IMG/VR virus record: IMGVR_UViG_3300009593_000010
Coordinates: 65,559-129,558 of that record
Reading direction: 5' to 3' (one strand)
Length of the DNA stretch: 64,000 nucleotides
Source: a virus
The notes under the pieces were generated by a model that saw nothing but the letters and a program-made list of their open reading frames with translations, was not told where the DNA came from and ran no database searches. A program made the translations under genes and the position numbers. This document shows positions 4,880 through 34,986 of the stretch, one piece after another; positions within the stretch are counted from its first letter, which is position 1; each line of letters starts with the position of its first letter.

Positions 4880-5065
4880 ATGGCAAATAACGAAAATATC
4901 ACTAAACTTATAAATTCAGTAGAGTCTGGAGACATGGTTGATGCATCTGCATCATTCCAAGCTGCAATGGTAGATAAACAAAAAGAAGCTATCGATCAGA
5001 AGAGATTGGATATCCAGATGAATTGGATGGAGAAAGGCACTGATGAAGTTCAAGGAACTAGTTAA
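4880..5065 (+). CDS. gp67: prohead core protein (gp67-like)
   Basis: Small protein directly after portal, as in T4-like gene order. Confidence 0.55.
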   Translation: MANNENITKLINSVESGDMVDASASFQAAMVDKQKEAIDQKRLDIQMNWMEKGTDEVQGTS

Positions 5066-5396
5066 GTCTTTAGACGAAGCCAAGTTTAAACTACCTCGTG
5101 GAGAGAAAGAGGTAGATTCTTATTTTGAGAAAGGTTCTAAGGGGAAGAGAGTACCTATAGTTATTTCTAAAAAAGGAAGTAAGTTCAAGGTCTATGTAGA
5201 TGGAAATGAACTTGCAATCTACAAAAGTGAGAAAGAGGCACGAAAGAATGCAAAACAACTACTTGCATTATTAGGTGAAGACCTCGATGAGTTTATAGAA
5301 CAGTTTAACATTGAGGACACTTTGGGGTTCTCAACTGGATTGGTTGGTAATCAGTCCTATAATGAACCAGAAGAAAAGGTTCACGAGATTAAGTAA
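5043..5396 (+). CDS. gp68: prohead core protein (gp68-like)
   Basis: Position between gp67 and gp21; MKFKEL...DE N-terminus. Confidence 0.5.
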   Translation: MKFKELVKSLDEAKFKLPRGEKEVDSYFEKGSKGKRVPIVISKKGSKFKVYVDGNELAIYKSEKEARKNAKQLLALLGEDLDEFIEQFNIEDTLGFSTGLVGNQSYNEPEEKVHEIK

Positions 5397-5407
5397 AGGA
5401 GACAATT

Positions 5408-6061
5408 ATGTTTTTAATGTCAGAATCAAGTTGTGATGAAGTAAGTTTAATCACAGAGACTACCAAGTCTGGTAAAAAAGAACAATATATCGAAGGAGTT
5501 TTCCTTCAAGCGAACATTAAGAACAGAAATGGTCGTGTTTACCCTATGGAAACGATGAGAAAAGAGGTAAAACGATATAATAAGGAATTCGTAAATAAAA
5601 AAAGAGCATATGGGGAACTGGGTCATCCAGAAGGCCCAACCATCAATTTAGAGAGGGTATCACACTTGATAACTGATCTTAAAGAAGATGGCAAGAATAA
5701 TTTTGTCGGTAAGGCAAAGATTCTCTCTACTCCAATGGGGAAAATAGTGGAAGGACTGTTGAATGATGGTGCAAAACTAGGCGTGTCCAGTAGGGGTATG
5801 GGTTCAATAGAACAAAAAGGAAGTGCTCAATATGTCCAAGACGACTTCATGCTTGCTACCGCAGCTGATATCGTTGCAGACCCTTCTGCACCAGATGCCT
5901 TCGTAGATGGTATCATGGAAGGTGTAGAGTGGGTTCAAGAGAACGGAATATTTAAAGCGAAACAGATCGAGTCTTGGAAAAGTCAGATTCGACAAACAAA
6001 ACAGCGTCATTTAAGTGAGAAAAAGTTTCAGATTATGTCTGACTTCTTCTCAAAATTATAA
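5408..6061 (+). CDS. gp21: prohead protease
   Basis: YIEGVFLQA, NRNGRVYP, GELGHP, LGVSSRGMGS, DIVADPSAPDAFV. Confidence 0.97.
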   Translation: MFLMSESSCDEVSLITETTKSGKKEQYIEGVFLQANIKNRNGRVYPMETMRKEVKRYNKEFVNKKRAYGELGHPEGPTINLERVSHLITDLKEDGKNNFVGKAKILSTPMGKIVEGLLNDGAKLGVSSRGMGSIEQKGSAQYVQDDFMLATAADIVADPSAPDAFVDGIMEGVEWVQENGIFKAKQIESWKSQIRQTKQRHLSEKKFQIMSDFFSKL

Positions 6062-28645: not shown

Positions 28646-29575
28646 ATGAAAGACTTTTTATGGGTAGAAGAATATAGACCTCGTACAATCGAGGATTGTG
28701 TTCTGCCCTCTCAAATCAAACAAACCTTTTTTGATCTAAAGGATGAAATTCCAAACATGATTTTATCTGGTTCTGCTGGAACTGGAAAAACTACTGTTGC
28801 AAGAGCATTGTGTGATCAAATAGGTGCAGATATGATGTTCATCAATGGATCAGAGGAATCTGGTATTGATGTACTCAGAACCAAGATTAAAAACTTTGCC
28901 AGCACTGTGTCGTTACAGGGTGGGAACAAAGTTGTAATTATTGATGAAGCAGATTATCTAAATCCCCAATCAACTCAACCAGCCCTTCGTGGGTTCATCG
29001 AAGAATTTCACAAGAACTGTAGATTTATTCTTACTTGTAATTACAAGAACAGAATCATACAACCTCTACATTCTCGATGTACTGTAATAGACTTTAAGAT
29101 ACCATCTGAGGAAAGACCAAGACTTGCAAGTGTATTTCTTGCTAGGATTATGACAATACTAACTGAGGAAGGTATCAAATTTAATGTGGAAGTATTACAG
29201 GAATTGGTACTCAAGTTCTTTCCAGACTTTCGTAGAACGATAAACGAACTACAAAGATATTCTGTAAGTGGAGAAATCGATGTAGGTATTCTCACTAATG
29301 TTGCAGAAGAAAGTATGAGAGAATTATTGTCTCATGTTAAAACAAAAAGATTTACAGATATGAGAAAGTGGGTTGCACTGAATTCAGACAATGACCCAGT
29401 TATGTTATATCGTAAGTTATATGATACCTTGTATGATACAGTTGATAAATCTAGTATCCCACAAGCAGTATTGATCATTGCAGATTATCAATATAAATCT
29501 GCTTTCGTAGCAGACCAAGAGGTGAATCTGGTCGCATGTTTAACTGAATTAATGATGGAGTGTAAATTCAAATGA
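28646..29575 (+). CDS. gp44: clamp loader large subunit
   Basis: LWVEEYRPRTIEDC, GSAGTGKTT, IIDEAD, LHSRC, FPDFRR. Confidence 0.97.
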   Translation: MKDFLWVEEYRPRTIEDCVLPSQIKQTFFDLKDEIPNMILSGSAGTGKTTVARALCDQIGADMMFINGSEESGIDVLRTKIKNFASTVSLQGGNKVVIIDEADYLNPQSTQPALRGFIEEFHKNCRFILTCNYKNRIIQPLHSRCTVIDFKIPSEERPRLASVFLARIMTILTEEGIKFNVEVLQELVLKFFPDFRRTINELQRYSVSGEIDVGILTNVAEESMRELLSHVKTKRFTDMRKWVALNSDNDPVMLYRKLYDTLYDTVDKSSIPQAVLIIADYQYKSAFVADQEVNLVACLTELMMECKFK

Positions 29576-29730
29576 AAACTATTAGGAACCAAACTACTGG
29601 GGTAATTGAAAGAGTAAAAGATAATGTTGCATCTGAAAGGGTAAAAGGTAAATCACAGGCTTCGTCATTATCTGGTGGTTGGAAATATTGTTCTAAGGAA
29701 GAATGGAAGAAGGAAGTTCGTGATGTCTGA
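29572..29730 (+). CDS. small hypothetical protein (52 aa, not in ORF track)
   Basis: ATGA coupling; MKTIRNQTTGVIERVKD...GWKYCSKEEWKKEVRDV. Confidence 0.55.
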   Translation: MKTIRNQTTGVIERVKDNVASERVKGKSQASSLSGGWKYCSKEEWKKEVRDV

Positions 29731-29920
29731 TTGGGATTTATTATATTATGTTTGTTTTATAGGGGTTGTCGTTGGTGCCTATATACATGGACATAAGTTA
29801 GGAATTAAACAAGGTGCAGCCACAATGTATGAACACATATATTCACAAGGAACTAGAAAGAATGATGTAGTCATTGTTGAATTGGAATATGAGTCAAGGG
29901 CAAAAACCAAAGAATTTTAA
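29723..29920 (+). CDS. small membrane protein
   Basis: N-terminal hydrophobic segment followed by GHKLGIKQG. Confidence 0.55.
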   Translation: MSDWDLLYYVCFIGVVVGAYIHGHKLGIKQGAATMYEHIYSQGTRKNDVVIVELEYESRAKTKEF

Positions 29921-29921
29921 T

Positions 29922-30683
29922 ATGAAGAAGTTAACTTTAGAAAATGATTTCAATATAAGAATGAATCTGGGTATTGACTATAAATCAATGACAGGATGGT
30001 GTGTTGAAAACGAAAATCATCCAGCACTATCCCATCAAGAGGATGGTATACAAGTACCAAACCAATTTAGTGATACTCTTAGATCATATGTAAGGGGTGC
30101 AACTGAGGGATCAAATCCAGATGAACATGATTGTATCGATGATGAACAATCAAAAGAAATTCAATTCTACCAAACATACAATCCATTTACTTTTGGAATA
30201 CCTTGTTTTGCAGACTTGTATTGGGCATTGAACAAGTTCTTTTATGAACATGATCAAGTCAAAGAGGCTGGAGAACCATATTACATACATGGGTGGTTTA
30301 ATGTTTATCATTCAAAGGTGGGTGAAGAGGGTTACGATCATATTCCGTGGCACAGGCATTTACATACTTTACATCCTCATATCTATCATGGATTTTATTG
30401 TGCAAATGTACAACCATCTGAAACTTGGTATCGATACTCTGCCCAATCACCAGAAGAAGATATCGTTAAGATTCCAGACTATGATGATATGTTAATCTTC
30501 TCTCAGAGTGGATATGAACATTGTTCATCTGCATGGAAGGGTGAAGTTCCACGAGTAACAGTTGCATTTGATATTATGCCAGAATCAGTCTATCTTGGAC
30601 TCCAAGAGATAGGAGATTCAGATTATCATTGGAGTTTAGATAGTAAACAATACCAAGCAATACCATTTCCATATTTACCATGA
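29922..30683 (+). CDS. 2OG-Fe(II) oxygenase-like protein
   Basis: HGWFNVY, IPWHRH, HGFYC, HCSS, RVTVAFDI; same pattern as 99-680. Confidence 0.7.
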   Translation: MKKLTLENDFNIRMNLGIDYKSMTGWCVENENHPALSHQEDGIQVPNQFSDTLRSYVRGATEGSNPDEHDCIDDEQSKEIQFYQTYNPFTFGIPCFADLYWALNKFFYEHDQVKEAGEPYYIHGWFNVYHSKVGEEGYDHIPWHRHLHTLHPHIYHGFYCANVQPSETWYRYSAQSPEEDIVKIPDYDDMLIFSQSGYEHCSSAWKGEVPRVTVAFDIMPESVYLGLQEIGDSDYHWSLDSKQYQAIPFPYLP

Positions 30684-31945
30684 GATATTTTCAATACACA
30701 TTAAAAGATTTAGAAACCAATTCTGCAAGGAAAGAATTTAATTACATTACATTCTTTGCTGGTGGTGGTGGAAGTTCTTGTGCATATAAACTCTCTGGTG
30801 GTGATGTGAGGTATATGAATGAATTTCAACAGGTACATGTTGATACTTATCTTGCAAACTTCCCAAATACAGTTCATGAATGTAAAGACATTAAACAAGT
30901 GACTGGTAAAGATATATTAGAAATGACTGGACTCAAGAAAGGTGAATTAGATATTATGGATGGTTCACCACCATGTCCACCATTCTCAGTTGCTGGAACT
31001 AAACGAGAAGGTTGGGGAAAAGAGAAAGTTGCATATGGAATGAAACAACAAAACATAGAAGACCTTACATGGGAAATGATTAGGATTGCAGAAGAAGTAA
31101 TGCCTAAAGTTATCGTATGTGAAAATGTAAAAGGTCTATCAATGGACTATGCAAGAGATCATCTTATTAGGATGATAACAGATTTTGAAAAACTTGGGTA
31201 CTCAGTGACTTGGAAAGTTATGAAAGGACATGAACATGGAGTACCTCAGAAAAGAGAAAGGGTATTCATGGTTGGTGTTCGTGATGATGTACTAGATGCA
31301 ATTGGATTACCTTTTATGTGTTTAAGTGGATTGTTTCCAGAGGCAAGTGATGAAAGAATATCAATAGGTGAAGCAATAGATGATCTAATGCACGATGAAG
31401 AGAATATCTTTGTTGGTGCTGATCTTGAGACTGAAATGTTAAAATCATCTAAAGCACATTGGATAACTGGATTTGAAAAACATCCAGACCCAGACCTTGC
31501 ACATTGTGGCCCATGTGAAGGATTAGACCCAGTTCTAAAAAGGAAATCTAATGCAGCCTATATATCTATAGGTGATGATATTGTTGGGCCATGGTTTCAA
31601 GAACAAGTCAAGAATGGTCATGTAAAACCAGAAGATGCAAAACATTCTTATTACATGTCAAGGATTGTTCCAAAAACTCTTCCAGCACATTCATTAACTG
31701 AACAGGGTTGTCAACCAAAGTTTATGGGTGGTAATCATTTTCATTACAATGGTAGGAGAATATACACACCAAGAGAAATGGTAAGGTTAATGACTCTACC
31801 AAACGATTATAAAATGACTGGAGACATTAACGAGAAAGGTGCAAGGATAGGTTTAATGGTTGCACCATTGTGTCTACATTATCTAGTAGAACAAATAAAA
31901 GAACAGGTATTAACGCCATGGAATTTACTGCAAGAAAAGACTTAG
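30680..31945 (+). CDS. DNA (cytosine-5) methyltransferase
   Basis: FAGGGG (I), GSPPCPPFS (IV, catalytic PC), ENV (VI), PQKRERVF (VIII), R.YT.RE..RL..LP (IX), G..V.P (X). Confidence 0.93.
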   Translation: MRYFQYTLKDLETNSARKEFNYITFFAGGGGSSCAYKLSGGDVRYMNEFQQVHVDTYLANFPNTVHECKDIKQVTGKDILEMTGLKKGELDIMDGSPPCPPFSVAGTKREGWGKEKVAYGMKQQNIEDLTWEMIRIAEEVMPKVIVCENVKGLSMDYARDHLIRMITDFEKLGYSVTWKVMKGHEHGVPQKRERVFMVGVRDDVLDAIGLPFMCLSGLFPEASDERISIGEAIDDLMHDEENIFVGADLETEMLKSSKAHWITGFEKHPDPDLAHCGPCEGLDPVLKRKSNAAYISIGDDIVGPWFQEQVKNGHVKPEDAKHSYYMSRIVPKTLPAHSLTEQGCQPKFMGGNHFHYNGRRIYTPREMVRLMTLPNDYKMTGDINEKGARIGLMVAPLCLHYLVEQIKEQVLTPWNLLQEKT

Positions 31946-32919
31946 GTAAAAAAGAAACTCACGAAGGATTTAATGGTCAGTGGTTAGGGACATCTTCATA
32001 TGATGATGTAGTTAGTTCTATAGGAGTTGATGAAGAGATCATAAAGATTTATAAACCTTTTGCATCACTGGGAGAGAAACCTCTCCTTGCATGTATTGTT
32101 AAAGGTCTGTATAAGGGTGACACATATAAAGAAGTTAAAGATACTTTAATGTCTATCGATGATACTTCTACCATGAGAGCAAATGCATCAGGGCCTATCG
32201 ACCATAAAGAAATGGAAGATAAGGGTTTGGTTGAAGGTAAAGATTACAAACTCAGAACAAAGAATTCCTATTATCCACTGAAAAAGAATGGACAGTGGAA
32301 CATGATTGCAGAAGCAAATGCAATTCATTCAGTCTTTGCTGGTTATAAACGAGGTAGATTCACAGGTATGATAGGATTATCTAACTGGTGTGAGAAGAAA
32401 TCTAATGTAGATAAGTGGGAAAAGATGAAAAAGATTGCACAGGTTAATGAGATTGCACTTAAAAAAGGTTGTCCAGATATCTGGAAACTACAAAGAACAT
32501 ATGCAGATGAATGTATTGATGAACAATATCAATTAGGTGGAGCTCCAATTACAACTCTATCTGCAAACAAATATACTACTGGTGGAACTCAAAAGATGTC
32601 TGCACATGTAGATGGTAAAGATTTAGAATTTGGTATGACTACAATGTGTGTTTTCAGAGAAGGTAATTTTGGTGGGGCATACTTATGTTTCCCAAGATAT
32701 GGAATTGCCATTGAGGCAGATGATGGTGATGTGCTGATTGCAGATTCAAATGAGATACATGGAGTCACTCCTATCACTGGAGAAGGTATAAGGTTATCTT
32801 GTGTTGCATATTGTTCAACTGATGTTGCAACTAAAGGTAGAGGTGGTAAACCAGAAAAACCTATTGGTCAACATGCAAACAAAAAACAGAATAGAGGAAC
32901 ATTAGGAGACTTCTTATGA
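31918..32919 (+). CDS. TET/JBP-family 2OG-Fe(II) dioxygenase
   Basis: AHVDGKD, GGAYLCFPRYGIAI...GDVLIADSNEIHGVTPI, RLSCVAY; directly after the C5-MTase. Confidence 0.8.
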   Translation: MEFTARKDLGKKETHEGFNGQWLGTSSYDDVVSSIGVDEEIIKIYKPFASLGEKPLLACIVKGLYKGDTYKEVKDTLMSIDDTSTMRANASGPIDHKEMEDKGLVEGKDYKLRTKNSYYPLKKNGQWNMIAEANAIHSVFAGYKRGRFTGMIGLSNWCEKKSNVDKWEKMKKIAQVNEIALKKGCPDIWKLQRTYADECIDEQYQLGGAPITTLSANKYTTGGTQKMSAHVDGKDLEFGMTTMCVFREGNFGGAYLCFPRYGIAIEADDGDVLIADSNEIHGVTPITGEGIRLSCVAYCSTDVATKGRGGKPEKPIGQHANKKQNRGTLGDFL

Positions 32920-33620
32920 AAATAGTAATTACAGGTTCTAGGGGATTTATAGGAACATACTTACTAAGTGCTTTAGATAAACATGAAATTGTAGAATGGG
33001 ATAGAAAATTAGATAGGGATATAAAAAATTTCTACCTTGAAGGTGATGAAGATTTTGTTATTCATCTTGCTGGATTAATCTCACCAAGAGATTCTATTAA
33101 TGAACCACATGATTACTGGTTGCAAAATGTAGAATACAGTAAAAAACTATTTGATGTATGTAAAGATGTTCCAATGGTTTATGCTTCAAGTGCAGCTGCA
33201 AAAGAATATTGGAGAAGTCCATATGGAACAACTAAAAAAGTTTTAGAAACACTTGCACATAAAGGTCATGTTGGATTAAGATTTGAAAGTATCTATGGTG
33301 ATGGTGCATCAGACATAGGATTAATAACTAGAATCAAAAATGGAACTATTAAGTATCATACAAATCATATAAGAGACTTTGTTCATATAGATGATATCAT
33401 AAATTCTATCTTATTGTTTATAGAACAAGGAACACGAGATAAACTACCATATTATGAAGTTGGAACTGGTAAAGAACATTTAGTTTCAGATGTAGTAAAA
33501 CATTTCGGAGTAGATGTTCCAGAAAAAGAAGGGGACAATATTGAAATATTTCGTAGTGTTGCAGATACAACAGAAATAGAAAAGTTAGGTTGGAAAGCGG
33601 AGAAGAGTGTTTATGATTGA
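32916..33620 (+). CDS. NAD-dependent epimerase/dehydratase
   Basis: ITGSRGFIG, HLAG, YASSAA, YGTTK, RDFVHIDD. Confidence 0.9.
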   Translation: MKIVITGSRGFIGTYLLSALDKHEIVEWDRKLDRDIKNFYLEGDEDFVIHLAGLISPRDSINEPHDYWLQNVEYSKKLFDVCKDVPMVYASSAAAKEYWRSPYGTTKKVLETLAHKGHVGLRFESIYGDGASDIGLITRIKNGTIKYHTNHIRDFVHIDDIINSILLFIEQGTRDKLPYYEVGTGKEHLVSDVVKHFGVDVPEKEGDNIEIFRSVADTTEIEKLGWKAEKSVYD

Positions 33621-34431
33621 TTTAGTTATATGTACATTTAAGAGATTGGATAAACAGATTACTCTGGGAAATATTCCAGAGAAGTTTAGAGATAATGTAA
33701 CTCTTGTAGTCCAACCACAAGAGGAAGAAGAAGCAAAAAAAGTTCATTCTAATATATTTGTTCTTAATGGGGATAATATTGGATATGCAAAAACTATCGA
33801 ACAGACAACAAAAGAATTTGCAGTAAATCGTAATAATCATTTTTGGTTGTTTGATGATGATTTAACTTTTAGATTCAATGAGGAAATAGAAGTAGGGGTC
33901 AAGGGAAAGAAACATAAATTTACAGAACAACATTTTGAACAAATGTTAATAGAAATTGAAAAAGAATTAGACTCTGGAATGATGCATGGTGCATTAGGAA
34001 CAACTTGGGTATTTCCTTGGGGCAAACTTCCATATGTTGAAAACAGTAGAATGTGTGGAAATAAAATCTACAATAAAGACCTTGCAAAAGTCTGGAACGA
34101 TATTGACTGGGTTGGATGTTGTGGTGCAGAAGATTTCTTTGTAAACATACAATTATTAACTATGGGATATTCAAACAAGGTATGGTATAATTATGTTATT
34201 GATCCCGGCCACAGTTATCAAGATGGTGGTTGTTCTGATTATAGAGATTTAGAATACCACAATAAAGCATGTAAAGACCTTGCAGAATTATATCCACAGT
34301 TTACTAGACTTAAAACTAATATTCAAAAGTCTGGGCCTTGGAAGGGTGTAGAAAAATTAGGAGTTCATGTGCAATGGAAAAAAGCATATGAATCATCAAA
34401 GGTCTCGACAATAACAGATTTTATGGTATAA
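33613..34431 (+). CDS. glycosyltransferase (GT-A fold, TET-associated type)
   Basis: ICTFKR, FDDD (DxD), AEDF; follows TET/JBP and epimerase. Confidence 0.75.
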   Translation: MIDLVICTFKRLDKQITLGNIPEKFRDNVTLVVQPQEEEEAKKVHSNIFVLNGDNIGYAKTIEQTTKEFAVNRNNHFWLFDDDLTFRFNEEIEVGVKGKKHKFTEQHFEQMLIEIEKELDSGMMHGALGTTWVFPWGKLPYVENSRMCGNKIYNKDLAKVWNDIDWVGCCGAEDFFVNIQLLTMGYSNKVWYNYVIDPGHSYQDGGCSDYRDLEYHNKACKDLAELYPQFTRLKTNIQKSGPWKGVEKLGVHVQWKKAYESSKVSTITDFMV

Positions 34432-34432
34432 T
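34405..34432 (+). promoter_or_regulatory. sigma70-type promoter, 16-bp spacer class
   Basis: TCGACA-N16-TATAAT with extended -10 TG; ATG 6 nt downstream. Confidence 0.5.
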
Positions 34433-34438
34433 AGATAT

Positions 34439-34609
34439 ATGAACTCAACAAACGAAAACATTCTTCAAATTATTCAATCATTTAAACTTCTTAATCCAGA
34501 GGATCAAGAAGTAGTTTTAAAGACTTTACAGAATGTAAAGACAGATTCAAATCATTTTAAAAAAGATATTGATTCTTATCGTGCAAAGTTAGTAAGGTCT
34601 ACTAAGTAA
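34439..34609 (+). CDS. small hypothetical protein (56 aa, not in ORF track)
   Basis: MNSTNENILQIIQSF...AKLVRSTK; TAATG coupling to gp62. Confidence 0.55.
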   Translation: MNSTNENILQIIQSFKLLNPEDQEVVLKTLQNVKTDSNHFKKDIDSYRAKLVRSTK

Positions 34610-34986
34610 TGAACCCATTTGATTATGTCAATGCATTGACCTTCACTAAGAAGGACATTATGGTTGACAGACAAGCAGAACGAGAGTACGCTCCCTTTAT
34701 CACAAACAGGACACTTTCGTACCACCAAGATTGCATCATGTATGCAAACGAAATAAATCGTAGACACCACCTAGATTCTCGTCTACAATTCCATTATTTC
34801 CTAAATACTCTAAGAAAACGAAAAAGGTTTGCCAAATGGATCAAACCAAATGTTTTGGAAGATATGAAGGTTATCCAATCATATTATGGATGTTCTAAAT
34901 CTAAGGCAGAAGAATACTTAAATATTCTTTCTTCTGAACAGATTGTAGAACTTAATGAGAGAATGAAAAAAGGTGGGAGACAATAA
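34609..34986 (+). CDS. gp62: clamp loader small subunit
   Basis: NPFDYVNAL, YAPFITNRTLS, LQFHYFLNTLRKRKRFAKWIK. Confidence 0.95.
   Translation: MNPFDYVNALTFTKKDIMVDRQAEREYAPFITNRTLSYHQDCIMYANEINRRHHLDSRLQFHYFLNTLRKRKRFAKWIKPNVLEDMKVIQSYYGCSKSKAEEYLNILSSEQIVELNERMKKGGRQ

Follow-up and report, generated by a model that had tools for sequence, protein, structure and literature searches.

A probable subclass II-type cytosine hypermodification cassette, predicted to act after replication, in the variable gp44-gp62 island of a marine T4-like phage

The pre-replicative route of phage T4 relies on the dCMP hydroxymethylase gp42 together with alpha- and beta-glucosyltransferases of the GT-B type. Other phages carry pairs of a cytosine-C5 methyltransferase (C5-MT) and a TET dioxygenase that act on GpC and have glycosyltransferase (GT) and epimerase genes as neighbours; 5mC was detected from phage TET-linked methyltransferases in E. 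coli, P-loop kinase clusters were described among these loci, and the contig maps (Fig. 2 legend) include redoxin and DNA polymerase genes (Burke 2021, PMC8256090). In the class termed subclass II, an epimerase-GT pair adjoins the methyltransferase and the 5mYOX dioxygenase; GT activity was epimerase-dependent and placed Hex, HexNAc or HexA on 5hmC in E. coli, the GT-A motif shared by phage enzymes and JGT is R...DDD...EDY/F, and the published Epimerase57/69 and GT57/69 measure 234 and 272 aa, the epimerases having MoeE5 (6kv9/6kvc) and TM0509 (4zrm) as top PDB hits (Pyle 2023, bioRxiv 10.1101/2023.12.21.572611). Two further systems are relevant here: the phage T-dioxygenases of 5mYOX clade C, which have no immediate C5-MT neighbour (PMC13229309), and CmoX, a carboxymethyltransferase with a GC target motif, whose Arg-350 contacts the carboxymethyl group and is needed for activity, the R350N variant being dead; its donor Cx-SAM is made by E. 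coli (PMC12783734).

In this work, we analyzed a 64,000-nt stretch of DNA (the window) from IMG/VR record IMGVR_UViG_3300009593_000010. The source is a 129.6-kb near-genome, about 71% complete, of a marine Melnitz/Mosig-like, T4-like myovirus. Its gp44-gp62 interval holds four abutting or overlapping genes of the + strand (30680-34431), for a C5-methyltransferase, a TET/JBP dioxygenase, an epimerase and a glycosyltransferase, within the following arrangement:

28646..29575, + strand: gp44, large subunit of the clamp loader, bounding the slot on the left (PF00004; PF21328 Gp44_lid; phrog_168, E 2e-124)
29675..29920, + strand: small conserved ORF of 81 aa with one hydrophobic helix, resident in the slot
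29922..30683, + strand: ORF269/253 (ORF269 below), 253 aa, putative divergent protein of Fe(II)/2OG-oxygenase fold, PF13759-like (structure model, family alignment)
30680..31945, + strand: DNA cytosine-C5 methyltransferase (MT), 421 aa (PF00145, E 3.8e-48)
31870..32919, + strand: TET/JBP (5mYOX) Fe/2OG dioxygenase (TET), likely start ATG 31918 (PF12851)
32916..33620, + strand: NAD-dependent UDP-sugar 4-epimerase-like extended SDR (EPI), 234 aa (PF01370, E 2.2e-18; phrog_540)
33613..34431, + strand: putative GT-A 'TET-associated' DNA glycosyltransferase (GT), 272 aa (PF20691; phrog_842, E 2.4e-29)
34439..34609, + strand: small ORF of 56 aa, unrelated to any ORF in the slots of other loci
34609..34986, + strand: gp62, small subunit of the clamp loader, bounding the slot on the right (PF16790; phrog_225, E 4.5e-39)

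The regA gene follows downstream of gp62. Neighbouring genes overlap by 4 nt (ORF269/MT), 28-76 nt (MT/TET), 4 nt (TET/EPI) and 8 nt (EPI/GT); TET probably starts at ATG 31918, in line with the starts of its relatives, and the 272 aa of GT are counted from ATG 33613, GTG 33607 being an alternative start. MT, TET, EPI and GT all exceed the Pfam cut-offs and have their catalytic residues intact, which bears out an earlier note that had described four overlapping ORFs with intact motifs, and the positions of gp44 and gp62 agree with its statement that they separate the clamp-loader genes. The further claim that the cassette was inserted there stands relative to T4 only, the slot being a standing variable island in this lineage. 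As the order MT-TET-EPI-GT is found again in at least 10 independent IMG/VR contigs, a chance arrangement is not an issue. A scan of the region for promoters and terminators returned no more sites than shuffled sequence, the only strong one, and the best of the region, being a promoter-like site at 34405-34432 (11/12 matches with extended TG) ahead of the 56-aa ORF and gp62.

The comparison with subclass II is close. In the clusters of this class (Burke contigs 57 and 69; Pyle contigs 32, 57, 69, 91 and 92), the four enzyme types of the window are found in identical order; in the window the C5-MT adjoins the 5mYOX/TET gene, an epimerase-GT pair is present and the GT carries an R...DDD...EDF motif. 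The epimerase and GT of contigs 57/69 are identical in length to those of the window (234 and 272 aa), and their epimerases share the structural neighbours MoeE5 and TM0509 with our EPI model; it is by their length, motifs and structural neighbours, together with synteny, and not by sequence identity to the tested contigs, that the window proteins are placed in the tested clades. Loci L006 and L009 are moreover flanked by redoxin and DNA polymerase genes, like the Burke contig maps. The window differs from subclass II in its setting: the cassette lies between gp44 and gp62 and follows a resident gene for a predicted 2OG oxygenase. The closest cultured phage is Methylophilales phage Melnitz (MZ577095-98), like the window's phage a marine T4-like member of the Kyanoviridae with curli-type genes. 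Its MT and TET are 55% and 52% identical to those of the window and their genes also overlap, but in Melnitz the pair stands alone and elsewhere in the genome, and the published annotation names just a 'methylase'.

With respect to the second half of the cassette, EPI has its NAD site GxxGxxG at G7/G10/G13 and the residues S92 and Y103-x3-K107, all of them invariant or nearly so in 42 homologues. The structure model (pLDDT 95.7) has a two-domain epimerase fold with a TM score of 0.87 to MoeE5, and its best PDB matches are 4-epimerases of UDP-GlcNAc, UDP-GlcA and UDP-Glc. EPI is some 70-100 residues shorter than the solved enzymes, and it has more than 100 short homologues. None of the NCBIfam equivalog cut-offs was reached. 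On the strength of its motifs and predicted fold, EPI is a compact UDP-sugar 4-epimerase-like extended SDR. No protein among 50,697 cultured phage records exceeded 39% identity to it; compact epimerases also occur in cyanophage and pelagiphage genomes away from MT-TET, as in Mosig (39% identity). The GT scores 31.2 bits against PF20691 (TAGT), which exceeds the cut-off of 27.5 by only 3.7 bits, and R11, D81-D82-D83 and E173-D174-F175 are retained across the alignment, a motif that points to the GT-A type. A sequence search of the PDB with GT gave nothing significant, and no relative above 30% identity was found among the cultured phage records. Its family phrog_842 includes GTs, at about 29% identity, beside the dCMP hydroxymethylase of T-even-like Klebsiella phages.

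In this lineage, the slot between gp44 and gp62 is a variable island for DNA modification, where the tailoring genes that follow MT-TET can be swapped. The backbone reads gp45-gp44-small ORF-ORF269-MT-TET ... gp62-regA, and the tailoring modules comprise a kinase; one or two TAGTs; a GT8 protein with a T4-type alpha-GT and a cytidylyltransferase; or an epimerase with a TAGT. Among the 17 complete slots of the lineage plus that of the window, the last combination occurs in the window only. The MT-TET-kinase slots of related marine T4-like phages share the backbone with the window (MT 80-91%, TET 59-83% identical), but in place of epimerase and TAGT they have a P-loop kinase, which is PF18751 in L107, and an unknown protein. 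L015/L016 have a DNA polymerase of only 54% identity, yet their epimerase and glycosyltransferase reach 90% and 79% identity to EPI and GT, a contrast that suggests transfer of the module; judged by these identities, the probable source of the epimerase-GT half is a marine T4-like phage of distant kinship. The pair would thus travel between lineages as a unit.

Upstream of the cassette, the 81-aa ORF has no Pfam match, although tblastn matches of 46-74% identity occupy the same position in 31/31 related loci. ORF269, described in the earlier note as another 2OG oxygenase, matches neither Pfam nor PHROG families, nor any of the 50,697 phage records. Its AlphaFold (AF2) model, of moderate confidence (pLDDT 68.7, pTM 0.73), does match Fe/2OG oxygenases in the PDB and only these (SnoN best, 7e-6; 3bvc, 2rg4, PHD2 and ABH2), in agreement with the description. 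Weak matches to PF13759 (2OG-FeII_Oxy_5) appear in 2/25 family members (E 0.028), its Atlas features point to PF13759 clusters (0.95), and in this marine-only family of about 255 aa H144-x-H146, H200 and R211 are invariant and may act as ligands. ORF269 is therefore best described as a predicted, divergent protein of Fe/2OG-oxygenase fold. It occurs in 31/31 loci of the lineage, with or without MT-TET, and is absent from L005-L012 and from all loci found via GT; it is therefore a resident of the lineage and not part of the mobile cassette, and its membership in the latter was rejected. Homology to the Fe2OG dioxygenase in the same slot of pelagiphage Mosig was also considered and is unsupported (hhalign probability 0.7%). 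ORF269 heads each version of the island, including those with glycosyltransferases and no MT-TET (L091, L098 and L117). That it might be a new kind of DNA-base-modifying oxygenase, supplying or editing the hydroxyl handle for the swappable tailoring genes, is a speculation to which we give a low probability; if it were true, the island would be a two-oxygenase system that goes beyond the published MT-TET pathway alone.

Several other readings of the cassette need to be weighed, and they turn on what the methyltransferase, the dioxygenase and the glycosyltransferase act upon. MT exceeds the TIGR00675 cut-off (150 bits vs 100.65) and has motifs FAGGGG (I), SPPC with Cys99 (IV), ENV (VI) and QxRxR (VIII), yet its best PDB match is CmoX of Synechococcus phage S-B43 (SpCmoX, 8YF3, PMC12783734; E 2e-71), M.HhaI being far weaker (1.6e-15). 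SpCmoX also has the SPPC motif, and its GC target is that of the published TET-linked methyltransferases, so MT could be taken for a carboxymethyltransferase that makes 5-carboxymethylcytosine as the handle for the downstream enzymes. However, motif X of MT reads G-L instead of the canonical G-N, a deviation common to 5 TET-linked relatives: in the alignment of 'RIGLMVAPL' with the 'RVGRMVPPL' of CmoX, Leu stands in MT and in 5/5 of these relatives at the position of the essential CmoX Arg-350 and of M.HhaI Asn-304. The stretch from about residue 245 to 350, which contains a Cys/His-rich insert, does not align with SpCmoX. In addition, the 129.6-kb record (about 71% complete) has no match to CmoA (TIGR00740), there is no CmoY partner, the slot has no amide ligase, and phage TET-linked methyltransferases yielded 5mC in E. 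coli (Burke 2021, PMC8256090), a host that produces Cx-SAM (PMC12783734). We therefore rejected the carboxymethylation reading, on the grounds of the Leu in place of Arg350 and of the missing CmoA, as extremely improbable; profile and motifs place MT, a sister of CmoX, among the C5-methyltransferases of the TET-linked clade. The residue at the Leu/Arg/Asn position of motif X is enough to tell TET-linked methylases and CmoX carboxymethylases apart from their sequences, which helps to annotate metagenomic homologues by the thousand.

A second alternative is that the dioxygenase acts on thymine and the GT makes a base-J-like glycosyl-5hmU, MT being an independent anti-restriction methylase. According to the literature, most metavirome 5mYOX genes come without a C5-MT and are predicted or shown T-dioxygenases; besides, the GT-A enzymes resemble trypanosome JGT, and distant GT relatives (35-39% identity) adjoin divergent TET genes with no detectable MT. 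In the window and in more than 20 related loci, on the contrary, the C5-MT and TET genes overlap and remain paired (59-91% identity), unlike phage T-dioxygenase clusters, which have no immediately neighbouring C5-MT (PMC13229309), and every GT of at least 49% identity is linked to MT-TET where upstream sequence is present. A thymine target is thus very unlikely, and hardly more can be said for the idea that MT-TET ends at 5mC or 5hmC, with EPI and GT glycosylating something other than DNA, for instance the host envelope or a virion protein. About 65% of the GT contigs in an HMM search had no neighbouring base-modification gene (Pyle 2023, bioRxiv 10.1101/2023.12.21.572611), the compact epimerases of cyanophages and pelagiphages such as Mosig have no MT-TET nearby, and Melnitz has MT-TET alone, all of which would fit this idea. 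Against it, the GT is a TAGT family member with the DNA-GT motif, its gene overlaps that of the epimerase in one co-oriented block with MT-TET, the close relatives (at least 49% identity) are all MT-TET linked where upstream sequence is present, and 5hmC in DNA was modified by subclass II pairs of equal size (Pyle 2023). As for TET itself, a sequence search of the PDB gave nothing significant, but the protein lies above the Tet_JBP gathering cut-off (PF12851, 45.6 bits vs 34.9; 47.4 bits in the genome search), and its HxD...H triad and 2OG Arg (H246-x-D248, H297 and R308) are invariant in 5 relatives, so that it does not cluster outside TET/JBP.

Taken together, the gene identities, intact catalytic residues and conserved synteny obtained here, and the match to the published class, indicate that the cassette is very probably a post-replicative cytosine hypermodification pathway of the subclass II type. 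As regards activity, target motif, sugar identity and protective role, we infer that (i) the C5-MTase would methylate cytosines of the phage DNA, probably in a GpC context as in the characterised relatives, (ii) TET/5mYOX would oxidise 5mC to 5hmC, (iii) the compact SDR epimerase would turn a host UDP-sugar into its 4-epimer, and (iv) the GT-A enzyme would place that sugar, possibly more than once, on the 5-hydroxymethyl group, the resulting glycosyl-5hmC shielding the genome from host nucleases. The earlier note had proposed post-replicative conversion of C to 5mC and 5hmC, followed by glycosylation with a sugar that depends on the adjacent epimerase, and each of these elements matches pathways that have been rebuilt experimentally. 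The sugar may or may not be other than glucose, as the note supposed, the published relatives having yielded hexose, HexNAc or hexuronate. The predicted end product is of the same class as that of T4, glycosylated 5hmC protecting phage DNA. In contrast to T4, hydroxymethylation is predicted to take place on the polymer and to be sequence-specific, the GT is predicted to be of the GT-A and not the GT-B type, and the donor sugar would be remodelled by the putative epimerase. The absence of the dCMP hydroxymethylase route, also claimed in the note, agrees with our search for ThyA/dCMP-hydroxymethylase homologues (PF00303), which found none in the 129.6-kb record; as this is about 71% complete, the rest of the genome may encode a pre-replicative route. 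We also considered a k-mer signature of GpC protection. Palindromes containing GC[C/T] are not depleted in the 129.6-kb genome (O/E 0.61-1.84), whereas 17/39 other C-containing palindromes have an O/E below 0.5 (Mann-Whitney p = 0.003, Fisher p = 0.029). AGCT (1.26) and GGCC (2.29) are, however, spared just as much in lineage relatives (48 kb) without MT-TET in the slot; the sparing therefore gives no support for GpC protection, and the signature was rejected.

The idea of such a pathway is not new, since the gene set was described and rebuilt in E. coli between 2021 and 2023. The locus leaves the known mechanism unchanged and is a well-placed natural example of a recently described family of DNA hypermodification, in which a defined phage backbone and a fixed genomic slot can be assigned to the pathway. 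Comparison of the versions of this island may help to pick modules for testing new DNA glycans.

The 129,558-bp IMG/VR record, of which the window is the 3′ half, is linear and ~71% complete, and comes from a marine T4-like myovirus; among cultured phages, two Kyanoviridae, Methylophilales phage Melnitz and Pelagibacter phage Mosig, are closest to it. Every gene of the region lies on the + strand, and the slot between the clamp-loader genes gp44 and gp62 is organized as follows.

Genes of the gp44-gp62 slot (window coordinates)
28646-29575, + strand, gp44, left border of the slot
29675-29920, + strand, small conserved ORF
29922-30683, + strand, 253-aa ORF
30680-31945, + strand, C5-cytosine methyltransferase (MT)
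31870 or 31918-32919, + strand, TET/JBP dioxygenase (TET)
32916-33620, + strand, NAD epimerase, 234 aa (EPI)
33613-34431, + strand, TAGT-family glycosyltransferase (GT)
between GT and gp62, + strand, 56-aa ORF
34609-34986, + strand, gp62, right border of the slot

Successive cassette genes (MT to GT) overlap by 4 to 76 nt, and all four encoded proteins exceed the curated Pfam cut-offs. Together with the gene order and the catalytic motifs, these matches confirm the four-gene cassette that an earlier note had placed between gp44 and gp62. The methyltransferase contains motifs I, IV (SPPC, Cys99), VI (ENV) and VIII, and TET residues H246-x-D248, H297 and R308 do not vary across five relatives. 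Across 42 homologues of EPI, GxxGxxG, Ser92 and Tyr103-x3-Lys107 show little or no variation; the EPI length of 234 aa is a trait of the family, since more than 100 clusters measure 230-260 aa, and the EPI model (pLDDT 95.7) can be superposed, with TM values reaching 0.88, on 4-epimerases of UDP-GlcNAc, UDP-GlcA and UDP-Glc. The GT motifs R11, DDD and EDF correspond to the set described for phage GT-A DNA glycosyltransferases and the trypanosome JGT (Pyle et al. 2023, bioRxiv 10.1101/2023.12.21.572611).

Phage C5-MT/TET pairs convert cytosine to 5mC and then to 5hmC after replication, mainly at GpC[C/T], and have GTs beside them, joined in contigs 57 and 69 by an NAD epimerase (Burke et al. 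2021, PMC8256090). Clusters in which an epimerase-GT pair adjoins MT/5mYOX were named subclass II, and several were rebuilt in E. coli, where GT activity needed the cognate epimerase with one exception and the products on 5hmC were mono- or disaccharides of hexose, HexNAc or hexuronate (bioRxiv 10.1101/2023.12.21.572611). The same study lists 234 aa for Epimerase57/69 and 272 aa for GT57/69 (supplementary tables), with MoeE5 (6kv9, 6kvc) and TM0509 (4zrm) as top PDB neighbours of the epimerases; the enzyme lengths and epimerase neighbours of the window's cassette are the same. Furthermore, peroxiredoxin and DNA polymerase genes flank relatives of the cassette, and Figure 2 of Burke et al. (PMC8256090) shows genes of these two types. 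Because lengths, PDB neighbours and these flanks match the published clusters, we file the locus as a putative member of subclass II. The hypermodification reading of the earlier note thus gains support by close analogy with pathways rebuilt in E. coli, and the cassette is a further example of a pathway already described. No ThyA-family hydroxymethylase was found in the ~71% complete record. The fold-search values of EPI lie numerically near those of Epimerase57, a hexuronate producer, which is only a hint.

The nearest solved structure to the methyltransferase, 8YF3 (E 2e-71), belongs to SpCmoX, a phage enzyme that carboxymethylates DNA cytosine with carboxy-SAM as cofactor; its specificity depends on Arg-350, equivalent to Asn-304 of M.HhaI, and its R350N mutant is inactive (PMC12783734). 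In our alignment, the window's MT and five TET-linked relatives have Leu at this position, a proposed sequence marker for telling methylases from CmoX, and no CmoA was found in the 129.6-kb record (~71% complete). Given both observations, MT is a sister of CmoX that most likely uses SAM. The GC motif needed by SpCmoX (PMC12783734) is in line with reports that TET-linked methylases prefer GpC. The variable region of MT (window 31400-31720, residues about 245-350) has a Cys/His-rich insert (HC-x-PC ... C), present also in relatives L006, L007 and L011 and absent from Melnitz, L009 and CmoX, which may be a small metal-binding element.

We also considered whether palindrome usage in the 129.6-kb genome reveals a protective GpC[C/T] modification. 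GC[C/T] palindromes are spared, while many others are wholly avoided: ACGT has 0 sites against about 136 expected, and AGATCT, AGTACT, GGTACC, TCTAGA and GTGCAC have 0 each against 22-30 expected. However, AGCT and GGCC are equally spared in relatives that carry the upstream oxygenase gene (the lineage) in a slot lacking MT-TET, and the sparing is therefore not evidence for modification. The absence of ACGT and other palindromes looks like avoidance of host restriction, and may hint at the host. Neither 207 kb of lineage relatives nor a 10-kb piece of Mosig contains ACGT, which is present in Melnitz; CpG is strongly depleted in the genome (rho 0.37). GATC has an O/E of 0.02 in lineage relatives (L089-L119) versus 0.56 (332 sites) in the present record, a contrast suggesting that this phage has another host or is protected in another way from enzymes that cut GATC.

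The 253-aa ORF preceding MT, which the earlier note had called a 2OG oxygenase, matches neither Pfam nor PHROG, and belongs to a marine-metagenome protein family whose members measure about 255 aa and share invariant His, His and Arg residues. Three lines agree with that call: PDB matches of its model are exclusively Fe/2OG oxygenases, two family members match PF13759 weakly, and its protein-language-model features lie close to those of PF13759 clusters. These point to a putative, divergent PF13759-like 2OG oxygenase.

Searching IMG/VR with GT, the order MT-TET-EPI-GT was recovered in 10 loci, MT-TET-GT without epimerase in two, and GT-gp62-regA in one partial locus, in settings after gp43, from peroxiredoxin to gp43, or from gp44 to gp62. 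In L015/L016, EPI and GT are 90% and 79% identical to those of the window and the DNA polymerase only 54%, which points to a probable transfer of the EPI-GT tailoring module between lineages. In L009 a 196-aa methyltransferase-like ORF (4918-5508; weak phrog_6564 and phrog_22502 matches) stands between EPI and GT and may further tailor the sugar. The cultured OM43 phage Melnitz (MZ577095.1, 2758-4942) has an MT-TET pair, annotated as "modification methylase" (gene 04) and "hypothetical protein" (gene 05); its paper treats only a methylase, and Melnitz DNA may contain 5hmC.

The search with the upstream oxygenase gave gp45-gp44-small ORF-oxygenase in 31/31 loci, followed directly in 22 by MT-TET, or the start of MT (MT 80-91%, TET 59-83% identical to the window's). 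What precedes gp62 differs between loci: an unknown protein, which matched no Pfam family, alongside a nucleotide kinase of the P-loop type (PF18751); one or two TAGTs; GT8, a T4-type DNA alpha-glucosyltransferase (PF11440, E 1.7e-73) and a cytidylyltransferase; or four unknown proteins. Across 17 complete slots and the window's own, the epimerase-TAGT pair occurs only in the latter. Where MT-TET is missing, the slot encodes a Tsp45I-type restriction enzyme along with a TAGT and a DruA-like protein; an FkbM methyltransferase along with a GT-B; or else an N6/N4 DNA methylase. The Tsp45I-type type II enzyme (PF06300, E 1.7e-66) and DruA-like (PF14236) genes of these slots (L091:6756-7523, L091:9653-10780, L098:6000-7127, L117:9181-10326) adjoin glycosyltransferases and a cytidylyltransferase. 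In two relatives the T4-type DNA alpha-glucosyltransferase follows MT-TET (L094:5754-6959, L106:9774-10943), and these slots join the post-replicative 5hmC route with a T-even-type GT-B enzyme.
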